Source: Gammaproteobacteria bacterium
Lineage (GTDB): Bacteria > Pseudomonadota > Gammaproteobacteria > Eutrophobiales > Eutrophobiaceae
NCBI GenBank assembly: GCA_965243205.1
Contig: CBDEUK010000002.1
Coordinates: 2,208,001 to 2,272,000, forward strand
DNA: 64,000 nt
Direction of reading: 5' to 3'
Below, piece by piece: positions 41,840 to 47,482 of the stretch; the stretch's first letter is position 1, and every line of letters begins with the position of its first letter. A program made the translations under genes and the position numbers. Under the pieces are notes generated by a model. The model did not search any database. It had not been told where the DNA came from and saw only the letters and a list, made by a program, of their open reading frames with translations.

Positions 41840-42286
41840 ATGGAACGGCATGTTGTTTTACAAAAGGCTTGTGATTATTTAGCTCGGCGCGAGCATAGTC
41901 GTAAGGAATTAGAACGGAAGTTGGCGCAAGGATGTGCTGATTCCGATCTAATCGATGAATTACTCAGTAAATTAGCCGAAGAAGGTCTGCAAAGCGATGA
42001 GCGTTTTACTGAAAGTTTTGTACATCATCGCTATCAAAAAGGTCACGGCCCACAAAAAATCCGTAATGAATTAAGCCAAAAAGGTGTAAAAAGTTGGCTT
42101 GTTGATGAATATCTTTCCAATCCTAAACTCGATTGGTATTCCCTTTGCTCAGAAATCAGACAAAAAAAATTTGGAATAGATCGCCCTAAAGACATAAAAG
42201 ATAAGGCAAAACAGTCTCGTTTTTTGTATTCTCGCGGTTTCGATTCTGAAATGATTATGTATGCATTGGAGATGTCTGAAGAGTGA
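41840..42286 (+). CDS. recX: Regulatory protein RecX
   Basis: [35 protein letters not shown]; follows recA. Confidence 0.95.
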
Positions 42287-44889
42287 AAACCACAAACGAA
42301 ATACGCGAACTGTTTTTACAGTATTTTAAGAAGCAACAGCACCAGATAGTTGCCAGCAGTTCATTAGTTCCTGCGAATGATCCAACGCTCTTATTTACCA
42401 ATGCAGGTATGGTTCAATTCAAAGAAGTGTTCCTGGGGCAAGATGATCGAGGTTACTCTCGTGCCACCAGTTCCCAACGTTGTGTACGTGCGGGTGGTAA
42501 ACACAATGATTTGGAAAACGTTGGTTATACCGCTCGTCACCATACCTTTTTTGAAATGCTTGGCAATTTTAGTTTTGGTGATTATTTCAAAAAAGAAGCC
42601 ATTCAATTCGCTTGGGAGTTTTTAACCAAAGAGCTAGGTTTACCTGAAGAAAAGCTCTGGGTCACTGTCTACACTGATGATGAAGAAGCCGAGAAAATTT
42701 GGCTCAATGATATTGGTGTTTCTAAAGATCTCATGAGTCGTTGCGGTGAAAAAGATAATTTTTGGTCGATGGGAGATACAGGACCATGCGGACCATGTAG
42801 TGAAATTTTTTACGATCATGGACCCGAAATTCCTGGTGGTCCTCCTGGTAGTCCCGATGAAGATGCCGATAGATATATCGAAATTTGGAATTTAGTTTTT
42901 ACTCAATTTGATCGTGCTAAAGATGGAACCTTAAATCCGTTACCAAAACCATCTGTTGATACAGGTATGGGTCTAGAGCGTATCGCTGCCGTGATGCAAG
43001 GCGTTCACAATAATTATGATATCGATTTATTTAAGAACCTGATAAAAGCAATTCATGATTTAGCAGGCGGACGAGATTTAGAAACGATGTCGACACGCGT
43101 AGTCGCTGATCATATTCGTTCTTGTGCATTCTTGATTTCAGATGGCGTGATTCCATCAAACGAAGGACGAGGTTACGTGTTAAGACGAATCATCCGCCGC
43201 GCGATTCGTCATGGTAATAAGCTTGGCTTTAATGAACCGTTCTTTCATAAATTAGTTGCCGCTTTAGTAGTTGAGATGGGCGATGCTTATCCTGAGTTGA
43301 AAGATAATCAAGCTCAAATTGAAAAGGTTTTAAAACAAGAAGAAGAGCGTTTTGCAGAAACACTCGGACAAGGATTGAAATTGTTCAAAGATGTGATTGC
43401 CAAGATGGATGGCAAAGAAGTCCCAGGGGATGAGGTATTTAAACTTTATGATACTTATGGATTCCCTGTGGATTTAACGGCAGATATTGCACGTGAGCAA
43501 GGACTCACTATAGATATGAAAGGCTATGAGTCATCTATGGCAAATCAAAAAGCCAAAGCCCGAGCAGCCAGTAAATTTGAAATGGATGCGAGTCTATTTC
43601 CTCAAATAGACAAAGAGACTGAGTTCTTAGGTTATGTTTCGTTGCAAGAGAAAACCAAAATAGCGGATATATTTCAAGAAGGACGTTCAGTCAACGAGAT
43701 AAAAGCCGGTGAGTCAGGTGGTATAGTTTTGGATTCGACCCCCTTCTATGCTGAGTCGGGGGGGCAAGTGGGTGACCAAGGACTTATATTTGGTGGTGAT
43801 GCTGAATTTAAAGTTGAAGATACACTTAAACAGGGTAAGGCTCATATTCATATCGGTAAATTAGATAAGGGCGTTCTCAAAGTTGGTGAACAAGTTACGG
43901 CAGTTGTGAATGAGAACCGTCGCAGTGACATTGTTCGAAACCATTCTGCTACCCACTTATTACACGCAGCTTTAAGGACAATACTCGGTTCTCATGTTCA
44001 GCAAAAAGGTTCTCTGGTAGCACCAGAACGTTTGCGTTTTGATTTCTCGCATCCTGAGCCGATTCAAACTGAAAAATTACGTGAAATTGAGCGATTGGTT
44101 AATTCAGTCATTTTACGTAATGAAGAAGCTGAGATTCAGGTGATGGGATTAGACGACGCAAAGAAATCTGGAGCTATGTCTTTATTCGGTGAGAAATATG
44201 AATCAGAAGTACGAGTTTTGAATATTGGCGCCAGTTTTTCCATCGAACTTTGTGGTGGTACCCATGTAACTCATTCTGGTGATATCGGCTTATTTAAGAT
44301 CGTAACTGAAACTGGTATTGCTTCTGGCGTCAGAAGAATCGAAGCCGTTACAGGTCGTGGTGCAATGAATTGGGTTGAACAAAGTGAAACTCAAATATCT
44401 GAAATAAGTGAATTACTCAAAAGTGATCAGGACAATCTAGTTCAAAAACTGAAACAACAATTAGAAAAAAATAAACTACTGGAAAAAGAACTCGATCAAC
44501 TGAAATCCAAATTAGCCAGCAATGCTGGTAATGATATGGTGTCCGAAGCGGTTGAGATTGACGGAATCAAAGTTTTAGCCAAGCATTTAGAAAACGTTGA
44601 TCCAAAAACATTACGCGATACCGTTGATCAACTTAAAAATAAACTAGGTTCAGCGGCACTGGTATTAGCAACGGTTAAAGATAATAAAGTGAGTTTGGTC
44701 GCGGGCGTAACGAAAGACCAAACAGATAAGGTAAAAGCGGGTGAATTAGTGAATTTTGTTGCCCAACAGGTCGGTGGTAAAGGTGGTGGTAGACCTGATA
44801 TGGCTCAAGCTGGTGGTAATAATCCTGCTGAATTGGATAATGCTTTAACGGGTGTCAGCGATTGGGTTAAAGAACAACTATCGAAATAA
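42283..44889 (+). CDS. alaS: Alanine--tRNA ligase
   Basis: [53 protein letters not shown]; GTG start. Confidence 0.99.
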
Positions 44890-45038: not shown

Positions 45039-46265
45039 ATGGCTCTTTTAGTACAAAAATTTGGTGGGACATCTGTAGGAACCAGCGAACGCATTTTGGC
45101 GATCACTGAACAGATTATTTCTAACCGAAATAAGGGTCATGATTTAGTAGTGGTTGTATCTGCCATGAGTGGAGAAACCAACCGTTTAGTTGATTTGGCT
45201 AGTTCCGTCAGCGAATCCCCTAATGAACGTGAAATGGATGTCCTGCTTTCAACCGGAGAACAGGTTACTATTGCTTTACTTAGTATGGCATTGCAGGCTC
45301 GTAATTGCCCTGCAATATCTTATACTGGTAGTCAGGTACAGATAAAAACAGATAATACTCATACTAAGGCACGAATTCTTGAAATCGATGCTGAAAATGT
45401 TAAAAGTGATTTAGCTAAAGGAAAAGTTGTCGTGATCGCTGGTTTTCAAGGAATTGATGAAAACGGTGATATTACTACCTTGGGACGTGGTGGTTCGGAT
45501 ACCACTGCTGTAGCAATGGCTGCTGCATTAGATGCAGATGAATGTCAGATATTTACTGACGTTGATGGCGTATATACAGCTGACCCAAGAATTGTTCAGG
45601 ATGCGTCAAAAATGGAACGCATCACCTATGAAGAAATGCTCGAAATGGCGAGCTTAGGATCAAAAGTTTTACAGATTCGATCAGTTGAATTTGCCAGAAA
45701 ATATAATGTCCCATTAAGGGTATTATCATCATTTACCCAAGGTACTGGTACACTGATTGGAGATGAGGAAAATAATGTGGAAGCAGCACTTATTTCAGGT
45801 ATTGCGCACAACCGAGACGAAGCAAAAGTAACGGTTGTTGGAGTACCAGATCAACCTGGAATTGCACACGCGATTTTAGGTCCAATTGCAGATATCAATG
45901 TCGAAGTGGACATGATAGTGCAAAATGTCGGTGTCGATAATACGACTGATTTTACCTTCACCGTACATAGAAATGATTACGACAAGTCTTTGCGAAAGCT
46001 AGAAGAAGTAGCAAATGAACTTGGAGCATCAGCAGTAAAAGGAGATGACAGAATAGTGAAAATATCGGTTGTAGGAGTCGGTATGCGTTCACACGCTGGC
46101 ATCGCGAGCAAGATGTTCAAGGCCCTAGCAGATGAAGGTATTAATATCATGATGATATCAACATCAGAAATTAAGGTTTCTGTCGTTGTTGAAGAGAAGT
46201 ATTTGGAGTTGGGTGTAAGAACTTTACATTCGGCCTTCGGCCTAGAAGGAGAAGCTGCAGCTTAA
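45039..46265 (+). CDS. lysC: Aspartate kinase
   Basis: VQKFGGTSVG, TLGRGGSDTTAVA, DVDGVYTADP, two ACT domains. Confidence 0.96.
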   Translation: MALLVQKFGGTSVGTSERILAITEQIISNRNKGHDLVVVVSAMSGETNRLVDLASSVSESPNEREMDVLLSTGEQVTIALLSMALQARNCPAISYTGSQVQIKTDNTHTKARILEIDAENVKSDLAKGKVVVIAGFQGIDENGDITTLGRGGSDTTAVAMAAALDADECQIFTDVDGVYTADPRIVQDASKMERITYEEMLEMASLGSKVLQIRSVEFARKYNVPLRVLSSFTQGTGTLIGDEENNVEAALISGIAHNRDEAKVTVVGVPDQPGIAHAILGPIADINVEVDMIVQNVGVDNTTDFTFTVHRNDYDKSLRKLEEVANELGASAVKGDDRIVKISVVGVGMRSHAGIASKMFKALADEGINIMMISTSEIKVSVVVEEKYLELGVRTLHSAFGLEGEAAA

Positions 46266-46349: not shown

Positions 46350-46553
46350 ATGTTAATTTTAACTAGAAGAGTTGGCGAATCGTTGATGATTGGCGATGAT
46401 GTCAATGTTACCGTTCTAGGTATACGTGGTAACCAAGTCAGAATTGGTGTTAATGCACCAAAAGAAGTTTCTGTACACCGCGAAGAAATTTACGAGCGTA
46501 TACAACAAGAAAAGAGCGGCAATGCACCATCGTCTCAAGACGAACAAGAGTAA
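46350..46553 (+). CDS. csrA: Carbon storage regulator CsrA/RsmA
   Basis: [18 protein letters not shown]...QVRIG..AP...VHREEIY. Confidence 0.99.
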
Positions 46554-46714
46554 TTAATATCAAGATATTTTTTTAAAAAAAGGATTTTTCTTGTTTAAAC
46601 AAAGCAAAATTTATTGCATTGCATGTGCACGTTAGTAAGGTTGCTATTTAAGCATGCAATATCATAAGTGTAGTTATCTATACCCTTAAATTTTTATTAT
46701 TGTCCTACTTTTTC

Positions 46715-46742
46715 TAGACTTTCAATGATCTAAAGATAAAAT
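46715..46742 (+). promoter_or_regulatory. Putative sigma70 promoter of the tRNA operon
   Basis: TAGACT-N16-TAAAAT ending about 10 bp before the tRNA-Ser 5' copy at 46752. Confidence 0.45.
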
Positions 46743-46751
46743 AAAACAAAC

Positions 46752-46875
46752 GGAGAGGTGGCCGACAATTTTGTCAGGAACAAAATTGGACATTTGAGCA
46801 AAGCGAAAATGGTACGAAGTACCGAAGCTCAGGATGAGCTGAGTCAACGGCTGAAGGTAATCGACGAAGTCGATT
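46752..46875 (+). pseudogene. tRNA-Ser 5'-third duplicate, interrupted in the D-loop by an ~82-nt hairpin-rich insert and ending in a GAA-triloop hairpin
   Basis: GGAGAGGTGGCCGA (46752-46765) and CGGCTGAAGG (46848-46857) are identical to the start of the tRNA at 46921. It is followed by AATCGAC-GAA-GTCGATT; no anticodon arm, T arm or 3' acceptor strand. Confidence 0.8.
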
Positions 46876-46920
46876 TTAAGAGTAAGCTAAACAATATAAT
46901 ATTTTAATAATATATATAAC

Positions 46921-47012
46921 GGAGAGGTGGCCGAGCGGCTGAAGGCGCTCCCCTGCTAAGGGAGTATACGGTTTATCCCGTATCGAGGGTTCGAATCCCT
47001 CTCTCTCCGCCA
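46921..47012 (+). tRNA. tRNA-Ser(GCT)
   Basis: GGAGAG acceptor stem, CTCCC-CTGCTAA-GGGAG anticodon arm, long variable arm, GGTTCGAATCC, encoded CCA. Confidence 0.97.
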
Positions 47013-47058
47013 TTTGACTATCTCGATCAAATCTATATTATTCGCCGTTCTTAATTAC

Positions 47059-47152
47059 GCGCCCGTAGCTCAGTGGACGACGTGCAGGAGCACAAGTGTC
47101 GCGAGAGGCAGGACGCCGATAGCGACGAGAGTACCGCAACACGAAGTGTTGC
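47059..47152 (+). pseudogene. tRNA-Arg 5'-third duplicate, interrupted in the D-loop by an ~50-nt hairpin insert and ending in a GAA-triloop hairpin
   Basis: GCGCCCGTAGCTCAG-TGGA (47059-47077) and AGAGTACC (47128-47135) match the tRNA at 47198; followed by GCAACAC-GAA-GTGTTGC. Confidence 0.8.
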
Positions 47153-47197
47153 TTAGATAGAACTTAAGTAAGTAACAATTTATACTTTTCATATAAC

Positions 47198-47274
47198 GCG
47201 CCCGTAGCTCAGCTGGATAGAGTACCTGGCTACGAACTAGGGGGTCGGAGGTTCGAATCCTTCCGGGCGCGCCA
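47198..47274 (+). tRNA. tRNA-Arg(ACG)
   Basis: GCGCCCG/CGGGCGC acceptor stem, CCTGG-CTACGAA-CTAGG anticodon arm, GGTTCGAATCC, CCA. Confidence 0.97.
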
Positions 47275-47283
47275 TTTAAAATA

Positions 47284-47305
47284 GCCACCTATCAGGTGGT
47301 TTTTT
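47284..47305 (+). terminator. Rho-independent terminator of the tRNA operon
   Basis: GCCACCT-ATC-AGGTGGT followed by a T-run. Confidence 0.8.
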
Positions 47306-47482
47306 ATTTCATCAATAGTAAATCGTAATTCAAATACTCCATTTAATAATCATTGATATGCAAGAACTGCTTTGTATTTTTCTTGCAGTTACATAGATGC
47401 TCATCCACTTTAGTAATACCAATAGATAAATCGCAAACATTATCAAATCAATCCTCTTATTATGAAACTCCGAGGTAAATAG

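Follow-up and report, generated by a model that had tools for sequence, protein, structure and literature searches.

Two neighbouring tRNA genes, encoding tRNA-Ser (GCU) and tRNA-Arg (ACG), are each preceded by a partial copy of their own 5' end, and in both copies the D-loop holds an insert with GGA-loop hairpins. These partial copies, called shadows in the following, lie in a window of 64,000 nt of gammaproteobacterial DNA and are the upstream, 5'-end mirror form of the classical tRNA-linked repeats (TLRs). Most likely, with a probability of roughly 0.55, the shadows would be tRNA-leader RNAs that carry CsrA-type binding hairpins within the frame of a partial tRNA-gene duplication. The region is organised as follows.

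42283-44889: alaS, further upstream than csrA
45039-46265: aspartokinase gene, further upstream than csrA
46350-46553, plus strand: csrA, 67 aa, immediately ahead of the tRNA cluster (Pfam PF02599 CsrA, 95.4 bits)
46715-46742, plus strand: promoter-like site ahead of the Ser shadow (TAGACT-16-TAAAAT, 9/12, consensus match only)
46749-46765, plus strand: start of the Ser shadow, equal to tRNA-Ser positions -3 to +14 (exact repeat)
46764-46847, plus strand: S core, RrB-like, in the shadow D-loop, four hairpins, two with GGA loops (model R1, 67.1 bits, E 1.2e-14)
46848-46857, plus strand: remainder of the Ser shadow D-loop and D-stem, equal to tRNA-Ser 46936-46945 (read from the sequence)
46859-46875, plus strand: Ser 7-bp hairpin with GAA triloop (sequence and fold)
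46876-46917, plus strand: T-run and AT-rich spacer behind the Ser triloop hairpin
46921-47012, plus strand: tRNA-Ser (GCU), intact (ARAGORN; Rfam tRNA 55.6 bits)
47014-47041, plus strand: promoter-like site ahead of the Arg shadow (TTGACT-16-TATTAT, 10/12)
47057-47073, plus strand: start of the Arg shadow, equal to tRNA-Arg positions -2 to +15 (exact repeat)
47075-47129, plus strand: R core, two GGA-loop hairpins, in the shadow D-loop (model R2, 69 bits)
47128-47135, plus strand: remainder of the Arg shadow D-arm, equal to tRNA-Arg 47219-47226 (read from the sequence)
47136-47152, plus strand: Arg 7-bp hairpin with GAA triloop (sequence and fold)
47153-47195, plus strand: AT-rich spacer behind the Arg triloop hairpin
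47198-47274, plus strand: tRNA-Arg (ACG), intact (ARAGORN; Rfam tRNA 62.2 bits)
47283-47301, plus strand: terminator-like hairpin with T-run at the end of the cluster

When the region was compared by blast with its own genome, exact 17-nt repeats were found for the Ser copy (46749-46765 and 46918-46934) and for the Arg copy (47057-47073 and 47196-47212), both beginning 2-3 nt ahead of the mature tRNA 5' end. Each shadow covers roughly positions -3 to +28 of the directly downstream tRNA gene. The order is the same in both: the copy of the tRNA 5' end is followed by the D-loop insert, the rest of the D-arm, the GAA-triloop hairpin, the AT-rich spacer and the intact tRNA. This plan had been proposed in an earlier, sequence-only reading of the same DNA with inserts of about 82 nt (Ser) and 50 nt (Arg); the exact repeats, D-arm pieces, GAA hairpins and spacers bear it out, and the lengths agree. 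That reading had ascribed a shadow to each tRNA, which is too general, as an upstream 5' copy is present at 2 of the 42 tRNAs of the genome. A downstream 3' copy, the classical TLR case, occurs at one of the 42 (Thr-CGU, outside the window). In the predicted fold of the S core (z = -3.6) two loops expose GGA, and the shadow D-stem remainder closes the core as a stem; likewise, the R core is closed by the D-stem in the consensus fold of the Arg shadows.

A covariance model of the Ser insert (R1) was built without the E. coli rrn sequences. With this model the rrnB T1-T2 spacer of E. coli K-12 scored 73.3 bits over its full length. Apart from one weak match, the model picked out in K-12 exactly the rrnD, rrnA and rrnB ends, where rrF, rrA and rrB lie. 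Judged by these scores, the core of the Ser insert (84 nt) and E. coli RrA, RrB and RrF are members of one RNA family. The sequence-only reading had held that it would be refuted by a match to an already described repeat family inserting genome-wide without tRNA preference; this applies in part, since the Ser insert matches RrA/RrB/RrF within the TLRs. In the alignment of the S core (A1, 86 sequences) the last hairpin loop has its GGA conserved to at least 90%, though the search pattern did not require it, and the hairpin with this GGA loop is present in 108 of 124 S-core copies. Among 61 genomes of the host's family the S core is a multi-copy GGA-loop hairpin repeat with 0-45 copies per genome. 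It also occurs in tRNA 3' fragments across the Gammaproteobacteria and within long ERIC repeats; a single ERIC of E. coli gave scores of 72.3 and 71.5 bits, and further copies occur in Citrobacter, Klebsiella, Serratia and Pectobacterium.

The Arg insert is not matched by R1, and the R core was therefore treated as a separate family (model R2). This 55-nt core is likewise a multi-copy repeat, with 0-58 copies per genome in the same 61 genomes. It was found in Arg-ACG, Arg-CCG, Arg-UCG, Leu-CAA and Leu-CAG loci with a spacing of 51-73 nt between core and tRNA; R copies away from tRNAs are without the shadow-type triloop hairpin. In E. coli genomes, blast found nothing that matches the Arg shadow. 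The R core is a second family on the same principle as the S core. Within their own genome both inserts appear unique by blast apart from the 17-nt repeats, which at first spoke against a repeat family; that view was overturned by the searches of relatives.

Neither shadow corresponds to a described Rfam family. At gathering score only tRNA and SRP matches were obtained for the window and seven element-bearing loci, and at E values up to 10 the shadows remained without any match in 46560-47330. The RsmY and RsmZ models (RF00195, RF00166) reached at best 25.8 and 20.7 bits, below cut-off, elsewhere in the genome and had no match on the shadows. A genome-wide count of GGA-loop hairpin clusters was useless for finding other CsrA sponges, with a background of 1.7 per kb per strand and top clusters in coding sequence.

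The upstream-shadow plan recurs in other genera, at Ser-GGA, Ser-UGA, Ser-GCU, Arg-CCG, Arg-UCG and Leu tRNAs, and is not due to chance. In the Ser shadows of other genera the insert and the triloop hairpins are homologous, while the flanks match the local tRNA. The covariation test that the sequence-only reading had suggested was carried out for both elements, and compensatory changes were found in 14 of 19 pairs of the S core (A1) and in 8 of 26 pairs of the Arg shadows (7 sequences), the latter including four of the seven pairs of the triloop hairpin. The same-genus genome G001 has no shadows at the same locus; this absence, together with copy numbers ranging from 0 to 45 (S) or 58 (R) in close relatives, shows that the arrangement is dispensable.

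The tRNA cluster lies 200 nt downstream of csrA. At csrA-linked tRNA-Ser loci of the host's bacterial family the S core is present in 7 of 11 cases and the R core in 3 of 11. Both the csrA neighbourhood and the CsrA-type nature of the GGA loops had been overlooked in the sequence-only reading.

If the shadows are leader RNAs, each would have a promoter of its own and form the leader of the tRNA precursor. The candidate promoter at 46715-46742, which had been proposed to place the Ser copy at the very start of the transcript, is present on the plus strand, but promoter-like sites are not significantly enriched (4 in the region versus 2.5 +/- 1.5 in shuffles). In two candidate RNA runs under the same species label, no reads fell on the stretch. 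RNase P cleavage at the tRNA 5' end, together with an RNase E-type cut in the AU-rich spacer, could release the leader. The freed leader would be a short-lived RNA whose two GGA loops bind one CsrA dimer; motif and homology point to CsrA binding by the shadows. CsrA availability would then track stable-RNA transcription. The shadow D-stem would serve as the closing helix of the element with the triloop hairpin capping its 3' side, and the tRNA fragment would be a scar, left when the end of the tRNA gene was partially duplicated in tandem during the insertion.

An alternative that we regard as possible, though clearly less probable, is that the cores are purely selfish MITE- or REP-like repeats and the shadows neutral, decaying scars without cell function. 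An insertion into a tRNA loop would survive only where the essential gene had been partly or wholly tandem-duplicated, and the broken copy would decay. The widely varying copy numbers, with near-identical copies in some genomes, fit such repeats, as do presence and absence at orthologous places (E. coli ERIC arms; G001 compared with G000) and the drift of some shadows from their own tRNA (two changes each in G042 and G053). The S core also shows no orientation bias towards flanking open reading frames (13 same-sense and 12 antisense, in tandem contexts and with crude ORF calls), so that a selfish DNA repeat fits as well as an RNA function. On the other hand, the features of a MITE were not found: the S core is without terminal inverted repeats, target-site duplication is absent at the tRNA-loop and ERIC-arm copies, no linked transposase was detected, and none of eight truncated copies examined had a gene between the element ends as expected of an autonomous version. 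A scan of viral contigs with the S pattern gave 9 matches in about 2.9 million and no sign of a phage vehicle. The selfish reading also has to account for the conservation of the loop GGA across orders and for the triloop hairpin, which is specific to shadows and retains its pairing by double changes in four of seven pairs. Furthermore, the E. coli member is described as a processed, protein-binding RNA (PMC8144298).

Of the hypotheses offered in the sequence-only reading, a tRNA-targeting non-autonomous hairpin element comes nearest, and to this extent that interpretation is partly supported: repeat families of very variable copy number exist, many copies of which adjoin tRNAs, but the proposed HUH/RAYT partner does not co-occur with them.

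The same reading had suggested a folding switch, in which the shadow 5' acceptor strand competes with the real one for the tRNA 3' strand and so tunes maturation. Such a switch would delay RNase P processing, perhaps under the control of a protein at the GGA loops. Minimum-energy folds of both precursors do pair the tRNA 3' end with the shadow strand instead of the real one, the shadows in the window retain 14-17 nt of tRNA identity, and a complementary competition would be available in the downstream mirror form. The ensemble frequency of these folds is about 0.001, however, and tRNA tertiary structure and co-transcriptional folding are left out of account in them. Six acceptor-strand changes were found in shadows of relatives; pairing with the 3' strand of the tRNA is preserved by three, each of them C to T, and lost with the other three. 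Moreover, the repeat begins 2-3 nt upstream of the mature tRNA end, and in G016 it includes about 30 nt upstream, which indicates DNA duplication rather than RNA mimicry. We consider such a switch improbable.

Still less probable is mobility as single-stranded DNA by an HUH transposase (IS200/IS605 or RAYT), with the GNA triloops as DNA hairpins and tRNA genes as targets because their sense strand would fold on the lagging-strand template. C-GNA-G triloops are frequent in the core, the element always has one orientation, behind a short fixed purine-A target and without target duplication, and the genome has one Y1_Tnp gene. This sole Y1 gene lies about 2 Mb away. Across the 61 genomes Y1 transposase genes (PF01797) are not associated with the S core: 24 genomes have both, 22 the core without Y1, 7 Y1 without the core and 8 neither. 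Y1 genes are thus present in 24 of the 46 element-bearing genomes and in 7 of the 15 others. The complete genomes G076 and G047, with 24 and 9 copies, have no Y1 gene.

Integrative elements as the source of the shadows (attachment-site remnants or decoys), or an artefact of assembly, can practically be set aside: the repeats do have, at 17-19 nt, the length of those at island borders, but integrases use the 3' part of tRNAs whereas the 5' part is duplicated here, the 'island' would be just 120-150 nt, none of the five PF00589 matches of the genome lies in the window (in line with the earlier remark that no integrase is nearby), the same plan is found in independent genomes of other genera, and the Ser shadow region (46560-46957) showed no differences in short-read contigs from two runs of one sample, possibly the source sample (the Arg copy at 47028-47183 lies outside this coverage). 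The related proposal of decoys for tRNA-targeting nucleases or integrases found no support either, the anticodon loop being gone and no nuclease or integrase linked.

As to how the repeats arise, the insertion points are precise. Both cores follow a conserved A and lie in exposed loops of stable-RNA gene fragments: the cores were found after A14, A20/21, A36 and A58 of tRNAs and in a junction loop of 5S rRNA, with a matching place in the ERIC hairpin. In every case a terminal gene fragment of about 27 nt frames them, the inner end of which is often capped by its own inverted copy. Loop positions and terminal-fragment frame together would fit an insertion at the level of RNA or folded single strands, followed by copying back into DNA. 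If this is true, it would explain, after 45 years, the origin of TLRs in their 3' and 5' forms. Such an origin, together with a wider scheme in which GGA-hairpin cores are elements that hit exposed loops of the most abundant stable RNAs and the resulting leaders and trailers form a dispersed CsrA-titrating system coupled to growth rate, here beside csrA, is speculative and in our view improbable.

The locus and its comparisons contribute four points: the CsrA-binding RrB core is a widespread gammaproteobacterial module that extends beyond the ends of enterobacterial rrn operons, a mirrored version of it exists on the 5' side of tRNA genes, a second, unrelated core is built to the same plan, and insertion takes place at precise points in RNA loops. 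Two questions become testable by this, namely how the repeats arise and whether leaders and trailers of stable RNAs feed the Csr network. The finding is also of practical interest, as the rrnB T1-T2 terminator of many cloning plasmids contains the S core.

Among known systems, long ERIC forms with internal insertions of about 70 bp were reportedly described by Sharp and Leach in 1996 and by Wilson and Sharp in 2006. The insertion is the same S core, whereas the host sequence is a MITE and not a tRNA fragment. With CsrB, CsrC, RsmX, RsmY and RsmZ the shadows share hairpin-loop GGA motifs of the CANGGAYG type, and by analogy titration of CsrA/RsmA would be expected; they differ in having only two sites per RNA and, presumably, a tRNA promoter instead of GacA-type control. 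The 3'ETS-leuZ of the glyW-cysT-leuZ precursor is similarly a regulatory RNA freed from the spacer of a tRNA precursor, but as presented in PMC8144298 it pairs with the sRNAs RyhB and RybB and lacks both a tRNA-end repeat and GGA hairpins.

TLRs have been on record since 1978 (Egan and Landy 1978; Rudd 1999, as cited in PMC8144298), and according to PMC8144298 a function is known for the three rrn copies only. Our literature search for a 5' form or a wider distribution returned none, TLRs being mentioned only in PMC8144298 and an editorial. Like the classical TLRs of E. coli K-12, as described in PMC8144298, the window copies are repeats beside a tRNA or rRNA gene with an exact short copy of the gene end. 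The classical form repeats 18-19 bp of the 3' end of the upstream gene, which in this genome applies to the Thr-CGU copy only. The window copies instead carry at their own 5' end 17 bp of the 5' end of the next downstream gene, and in addition a second piece from the D-arm.

The closest relatives are RrA, RrB and RrF, which lie between the dual terminators of rrnA, rrnB and rrnD (Stenum et al. 2021, PMC8144298). The rrB sequence and the Ser insert are matched over the full length by one covariance model (73 and 67 bits), both contain GGA-loop hairpins and GNA triloops, and both are set in a short terminal fragment of the adjoining stable-RNA gene, inside a stable-RNA transcription unit that for the Ser copy is putative. 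RrB follows 5S rRNA and closes with 18 nt of the 5S 3' end, whereas the Ser copy precedes a tRNA and starts with 17 nt of the tRNA 5' end. RrB homologues are reported in PMC8144298 solely downstream of 5S in Enterobacterales, in contrast to the Ser core in a distant low-GC gammaproteobacterium, and CsrA and Hfq binding was assayed for RrB only. According to the same source, the remaining 19 E. coli TLRs score below 0.01 as CsrA binders, and the phenotypes reported for E. coli are weak and paradoxical. RrB itself is described there as a tRNA-linked repeat sRNA of the rrnB T1-T2 spacer that binds CsrA and Hfq in vitro; for RrB-short and CsrA the KD is near 100 nM, and binding was lost when three GGA were changed (PMC8144298). 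It is co-transcribed with rRNA, processed, and has a half-life of 2-3 min, and it has been proposed to tie CsrA availability to stable-RNA transcription (PMC8144298).

The intact genes for tRNA-Ser-GCU and tRNA-Arg-ACG are each preceded by a shadow, a truncated 5' copy of the gene with an insert in its D-loop. The window contains the following features, and in addition a gene for an AraC/GyrI-type regulator.

42283-44889: alaS
45039-46265: aspartokinase gene
46350-46553: csrA, 200 nt upstream of the tRNA/shadow cluster
46749-46765: Ser repeat, exact over 17 nt with 46918-46934
46848-46857: D-arm remainder, Ser shadow
46859-46875: 7-bp hairpin with GAA loop, Ser shadow
46921-47012: tRNA-Ser-GCU, intact
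47057-47073: Arg repeat, exact over 17 nt with 47196-47212
47128-47135: D-arm remainder, Arg shadow
47136-47152: 7-bp hairpin with GAA loop, Arg shadow
47198-47274: tRNA-Arg-ACG, intact
47283-47301: terminator-like hairpin

The repeats begin 3 nt (Ser) and 2 nt (Arg) ahead of the mature 5' end. The inserts, about 82 nt (Ser) and 50 nt (Arg) long, are placed after 14-19 tRNA positions and are followed by a D-arm remainder identical to the real tRNA, the GAA-loop hairpin, an AT-rich spacer and the intact gene. As all these parts were found, the sequence-only reading described the shadows correctly in detail, but its title, which spoke of each tRNA, was too wide: only these two of the 42 tRNA genes in the 2.79-Mb genome have an upstream copy of their own 5' end. 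The Thr-CGU gene, which lies outside the window, is the single case with its 3' end repeated downstream. Promoter-like sites lie ahead of both shadows (46715-46742, Ser; 47014-47041, Arg), their number not being above chance. Read runs X15 and X18 include a more deeply covered contig, from another organism, in which 39 other letters replace the 174-nt stretch with the Arg shadow between the tRNA-Ser end and the tRNA-Arg start (window 47020-47195); the sample also contains a relative without this shadow.

Forty-one related genomes were searched at the DNA level, with tRNA calling as the next step, and the plan recurred in further genera of the family. A 5' copy with a homologous insert lies upstream of Ser-GGA (G015, G018), Ser-UGA (G014) and Ser-GCU (G015, G012, G016), and one with an Arg-type insert lies upstream of Arg-CCG (G013) and Arg-UCG (G014). 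The tRNA-like flanks match the local isoacceptor at its specific positions, while the insert is shared. In G001, a genome of the same genus, neither tRNA at this locus has a shadow; the arrangement is thus not fixed. Among the 11 csrA-linked tRNA-Ser loci of the family, which come from kin genomes and are not independent, seven contain the Ser insert (S core) and three the Arg insert (R core).

Stenum et al. (2021, PMC8144298) describe 22 tRNA-linked repeats (TLRs) in E. coli K-12. Three of them, rrA, rrB and rrF, lie between the dual terminators of rrnA, rrnB and rrnD and give sRNAs of short lifetime, for which in vitro binding to Hfq and CsrA via GGA motifs is reported (PMC8144298). The covariance model R1, built from 86 aligned S cores with none from E. 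coli rrn operons, matched the K-12 rrnB T1-T2 spacer over its full length with 73.3 bits (window Ser copy, 67.1 bits), and on the K-12 chromosome it found exactly the rrnD, rrnA and rrnB ends plus one weak match. These matches make the Ser insert a member of the RrA/B/F core family. The weak match (27.7 bits; 3708464-3708533, minus strand; L185:1501-1570) is possibly a decayed TLR.

With a degenerate pattern for the first hairpin, at least 120 S-core loci were found in a collection with one genome per species. Those listed belong to Citrobacter, Klebsiella, Serratia, Pectobacterium, Brenneria, Xenorhabdus, Rheinheimera, Arsukibacterium, Alishewanella, Rhodanobacter, Dyella, Dokdonella and many uncultured Gammaproteobacteria. 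Among the matches listed, 108 of 124 copies have a distal hairpin with GGA in the loop, which the pattern did not demand; a tRNA gene lies within -600 to +700 nt of 42 (40 on the same strand), and TTC, the T-loop context, stands directly ahead of the core in 41. Eleven of the 86 aligned copies come from the window's family; the other 75, taken from the pattern set, were picked because they have the distal hairpin and are 66-98 nt long. The alignment has 19 consensus pairs, 14 of them with compensatory double changes. For the 75 rows obtained with the pattern, first-loop conservation is a circular result; the last loop, CA-GGA-G, is free of this circularity and is at least 90% conserved. The S core is present in 46 of 61 family genomes with 0-45 copies each. 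Of the two copies in the window's genome, the one outside the window follows tRNA-Thr-CGU as a classical downstream TLR (contig C2, 664048-664125, minus strand; L166:1501-1578; 74.7 bits), in the order palindromic hairpin, short hairpin, S core, 17 nt repeating the tRNA 3' end, terminator. In the complete genome G076, 11 places (L198-L208) carry composite repeats, each about 250 nt long and belonging to one of two families, in which the S core is combined with further GGA-loop hairpins; one family has inverted ends, the other inverted S copies nearby, and the near identity of the copies indicates recent spread.

Contexts of non-redundant, near-full S-core copies (tRNA within 300 nt; end repeat of at least 12 nt)
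Pattern-derived loci, among the matches listed (132 copies): no tRNA, 84; tRNA upstream, 32 (3'-end repeat, 20); tRNA downstream, 14 (5'-end repeat, 7); only antisense tRNA, 2
Family loci (42 copies): no tRNA, 11; tRNA upstream, 12 (3'-end repeat, 8); tRNA downstream, 14 (5'-end repeat, 6); only antisense tRNA, 5

The S core is always inserted 3' of a purine-A within a loop, namely at D-loop 14, D-loop 20-22, anticodon-loop 36 (one case) or T-loop 58, and no target duplication was seen at these points. A T-loop with TTCA in place of TTCG is matched by TTCA in its copy, with the core directly next to it, so the purine-A is part of the target. Whether the form is upstream or downstream, the core is framed by a terminal tRNA fragment of some 27 nt, whose inner end is often capped by its own inverted copy. 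Among 53 T-loop-type copies, 26 have such an inverted copy (at least 5 of the 7 preceding nt, no more than 40 nt upstream); 200 shuffles gave 2.8 on average and never more than 9.

The R core, 55 nt with two GGA-loop hairpins, forms a second family. An exact pattern detected it in 4 genomes of a class-wide sample of 401, outside the family in non-tRNA contexts; the model R2, built from 6 sequences, detected it in 47 of 61 family genomes with 0-58 copies, at times in tandem arrays. Head-to-tail arrays with a 51-nt period were seen in G008 (C70:34-192, C5:2215-2373, C68:20101-20259). In the best 30 loci a tRNA lies within 250 nt of 16 of 33 R cores, mostly placed in 5' shadows of Arg-ACG/CCG/UCG and Leu-CAA/CAG, 51-73 nt from the tRNA, and the triloop hairpin is absent from the non-tRNA copies. 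In seven Arg shadows the R core is closed by the D-stem of the shadow, and the triloop hairpin keeps its pairing through double changes at four of seven pairs. In L231 (G015:C34) the R core of an Arg-ACG shadow is split by a further insert within its first hairpin; nesting of elements therefore occurs.

No mobility partner for the S core was found among truncated copies, Y1 genes and tyrosine recombinases. Eight truncated copies have no gene between the element ends. The suggested co-occurrence with a HUH/RAYT transposase was not borne out: Y1 HUH genes are not commoner with the S core (24 of 46 genomes) than without it (7 of 15), and they are absent from complete genomes with 24 or 9 copies. 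As had been noted, no integrase is nearby, all five tyrosine recombinase genes of the genome lying outside the window. Compared with crudely called flanking ORFs, the S core has no preferred orientation in tandem contexts (13 to 12); it lies between convergent genes more often (13) than between divergent ones (4). Elsewhere in the genome, a tyrosine recombinase match (C1:27712-28254) is situated some 1 kb from a second csrA-like stretch (C1:26542-26696), whose DNA is 72% identical to the csrA of the window; the two may belong to a mobile element with a csrA paralogue. A tight group of five tRNA calls (Phe, Lys, Leu-CAG, Met, Ile-TAT; C2:1023781-1024724), with sequences unlike the housekeeping copies, is possibly phage- or island-borne.

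Whatever is said on the function of this locus we infer. The GGA loops are conserved, of the CANGGAYG type, and we give a probability of roughly 0.55 to the shadows being tRNA-leader RNAs that bind CsrA and couple growth-rate-controlled transcription to the Csr network. Judged from its homology with RrB, a shadow would be the leader of its tRNA precursor, would be freed by RNase P and a cleavage in the AU-rich spacer, would bind one CsrA dimer through two loops and, through its link to a stable-RNA promoter, would signal growth-rate-controlled transcription to the Csr network. RsmY and RsmZ gave no match above cut-off in this genome, which leaves room for a CsrA-titrating role and proves nothing.

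We consider it less likely that the repeat is purely selfish and the shadows neutral scars. The idea of a folding switch, in which the shadow 5' strand would pair with the tRNA 3' end in the precursor, agrees with the energy folding of both precursors, but those folds have ensemble frequencies near 0.001 and are of a kind unreliable for tRNAs, the repeats take in nucleotides 5' of the mature tRNA, some 30 of them in G016, the shadows of G042, G053 and G074 differ from their tRNA, and of six acceptor-strand changes in relatives' shadows three keep and three break the pairing. The upstream nucleotides, the differences and the mixed changes fit a duplication of DNA that later drifted better than they fit selected mimicry.

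The TLR repeat class and the RrB core are already known. The literature searched gave us no description of the second core family, of the 5'-end form upstream of the gene, of the exact points of insertion within loops, or of the RrB core far outside Enterobacterales and inside ERIC. ERIC 'long forms' with internal insertions of about 70 bp were reportedly described by Sharp and co-workers. One ERIC of an E. coli isolate (NZ_CP033635.1), located upstream of gyrA and flanked on its other side by a racemase-family gene, contains an S core in both arms (L241:428-501 and 540-619; 72.3 and 71.5 bits), and ERIC copies of other enterobacteria contain it as well. At least 80% of a Citrobacter ERIC-plus-core query is present in 611 of 5426 complete E. 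coli genomes; since the K-12 core is limited to the three rrn ends, ERIC-borne cores are polymorphic in this species. At rrnB itself the core is flanked by about 8 nt on the left and 18 nt on the right, repeating the 5S rRNA end.
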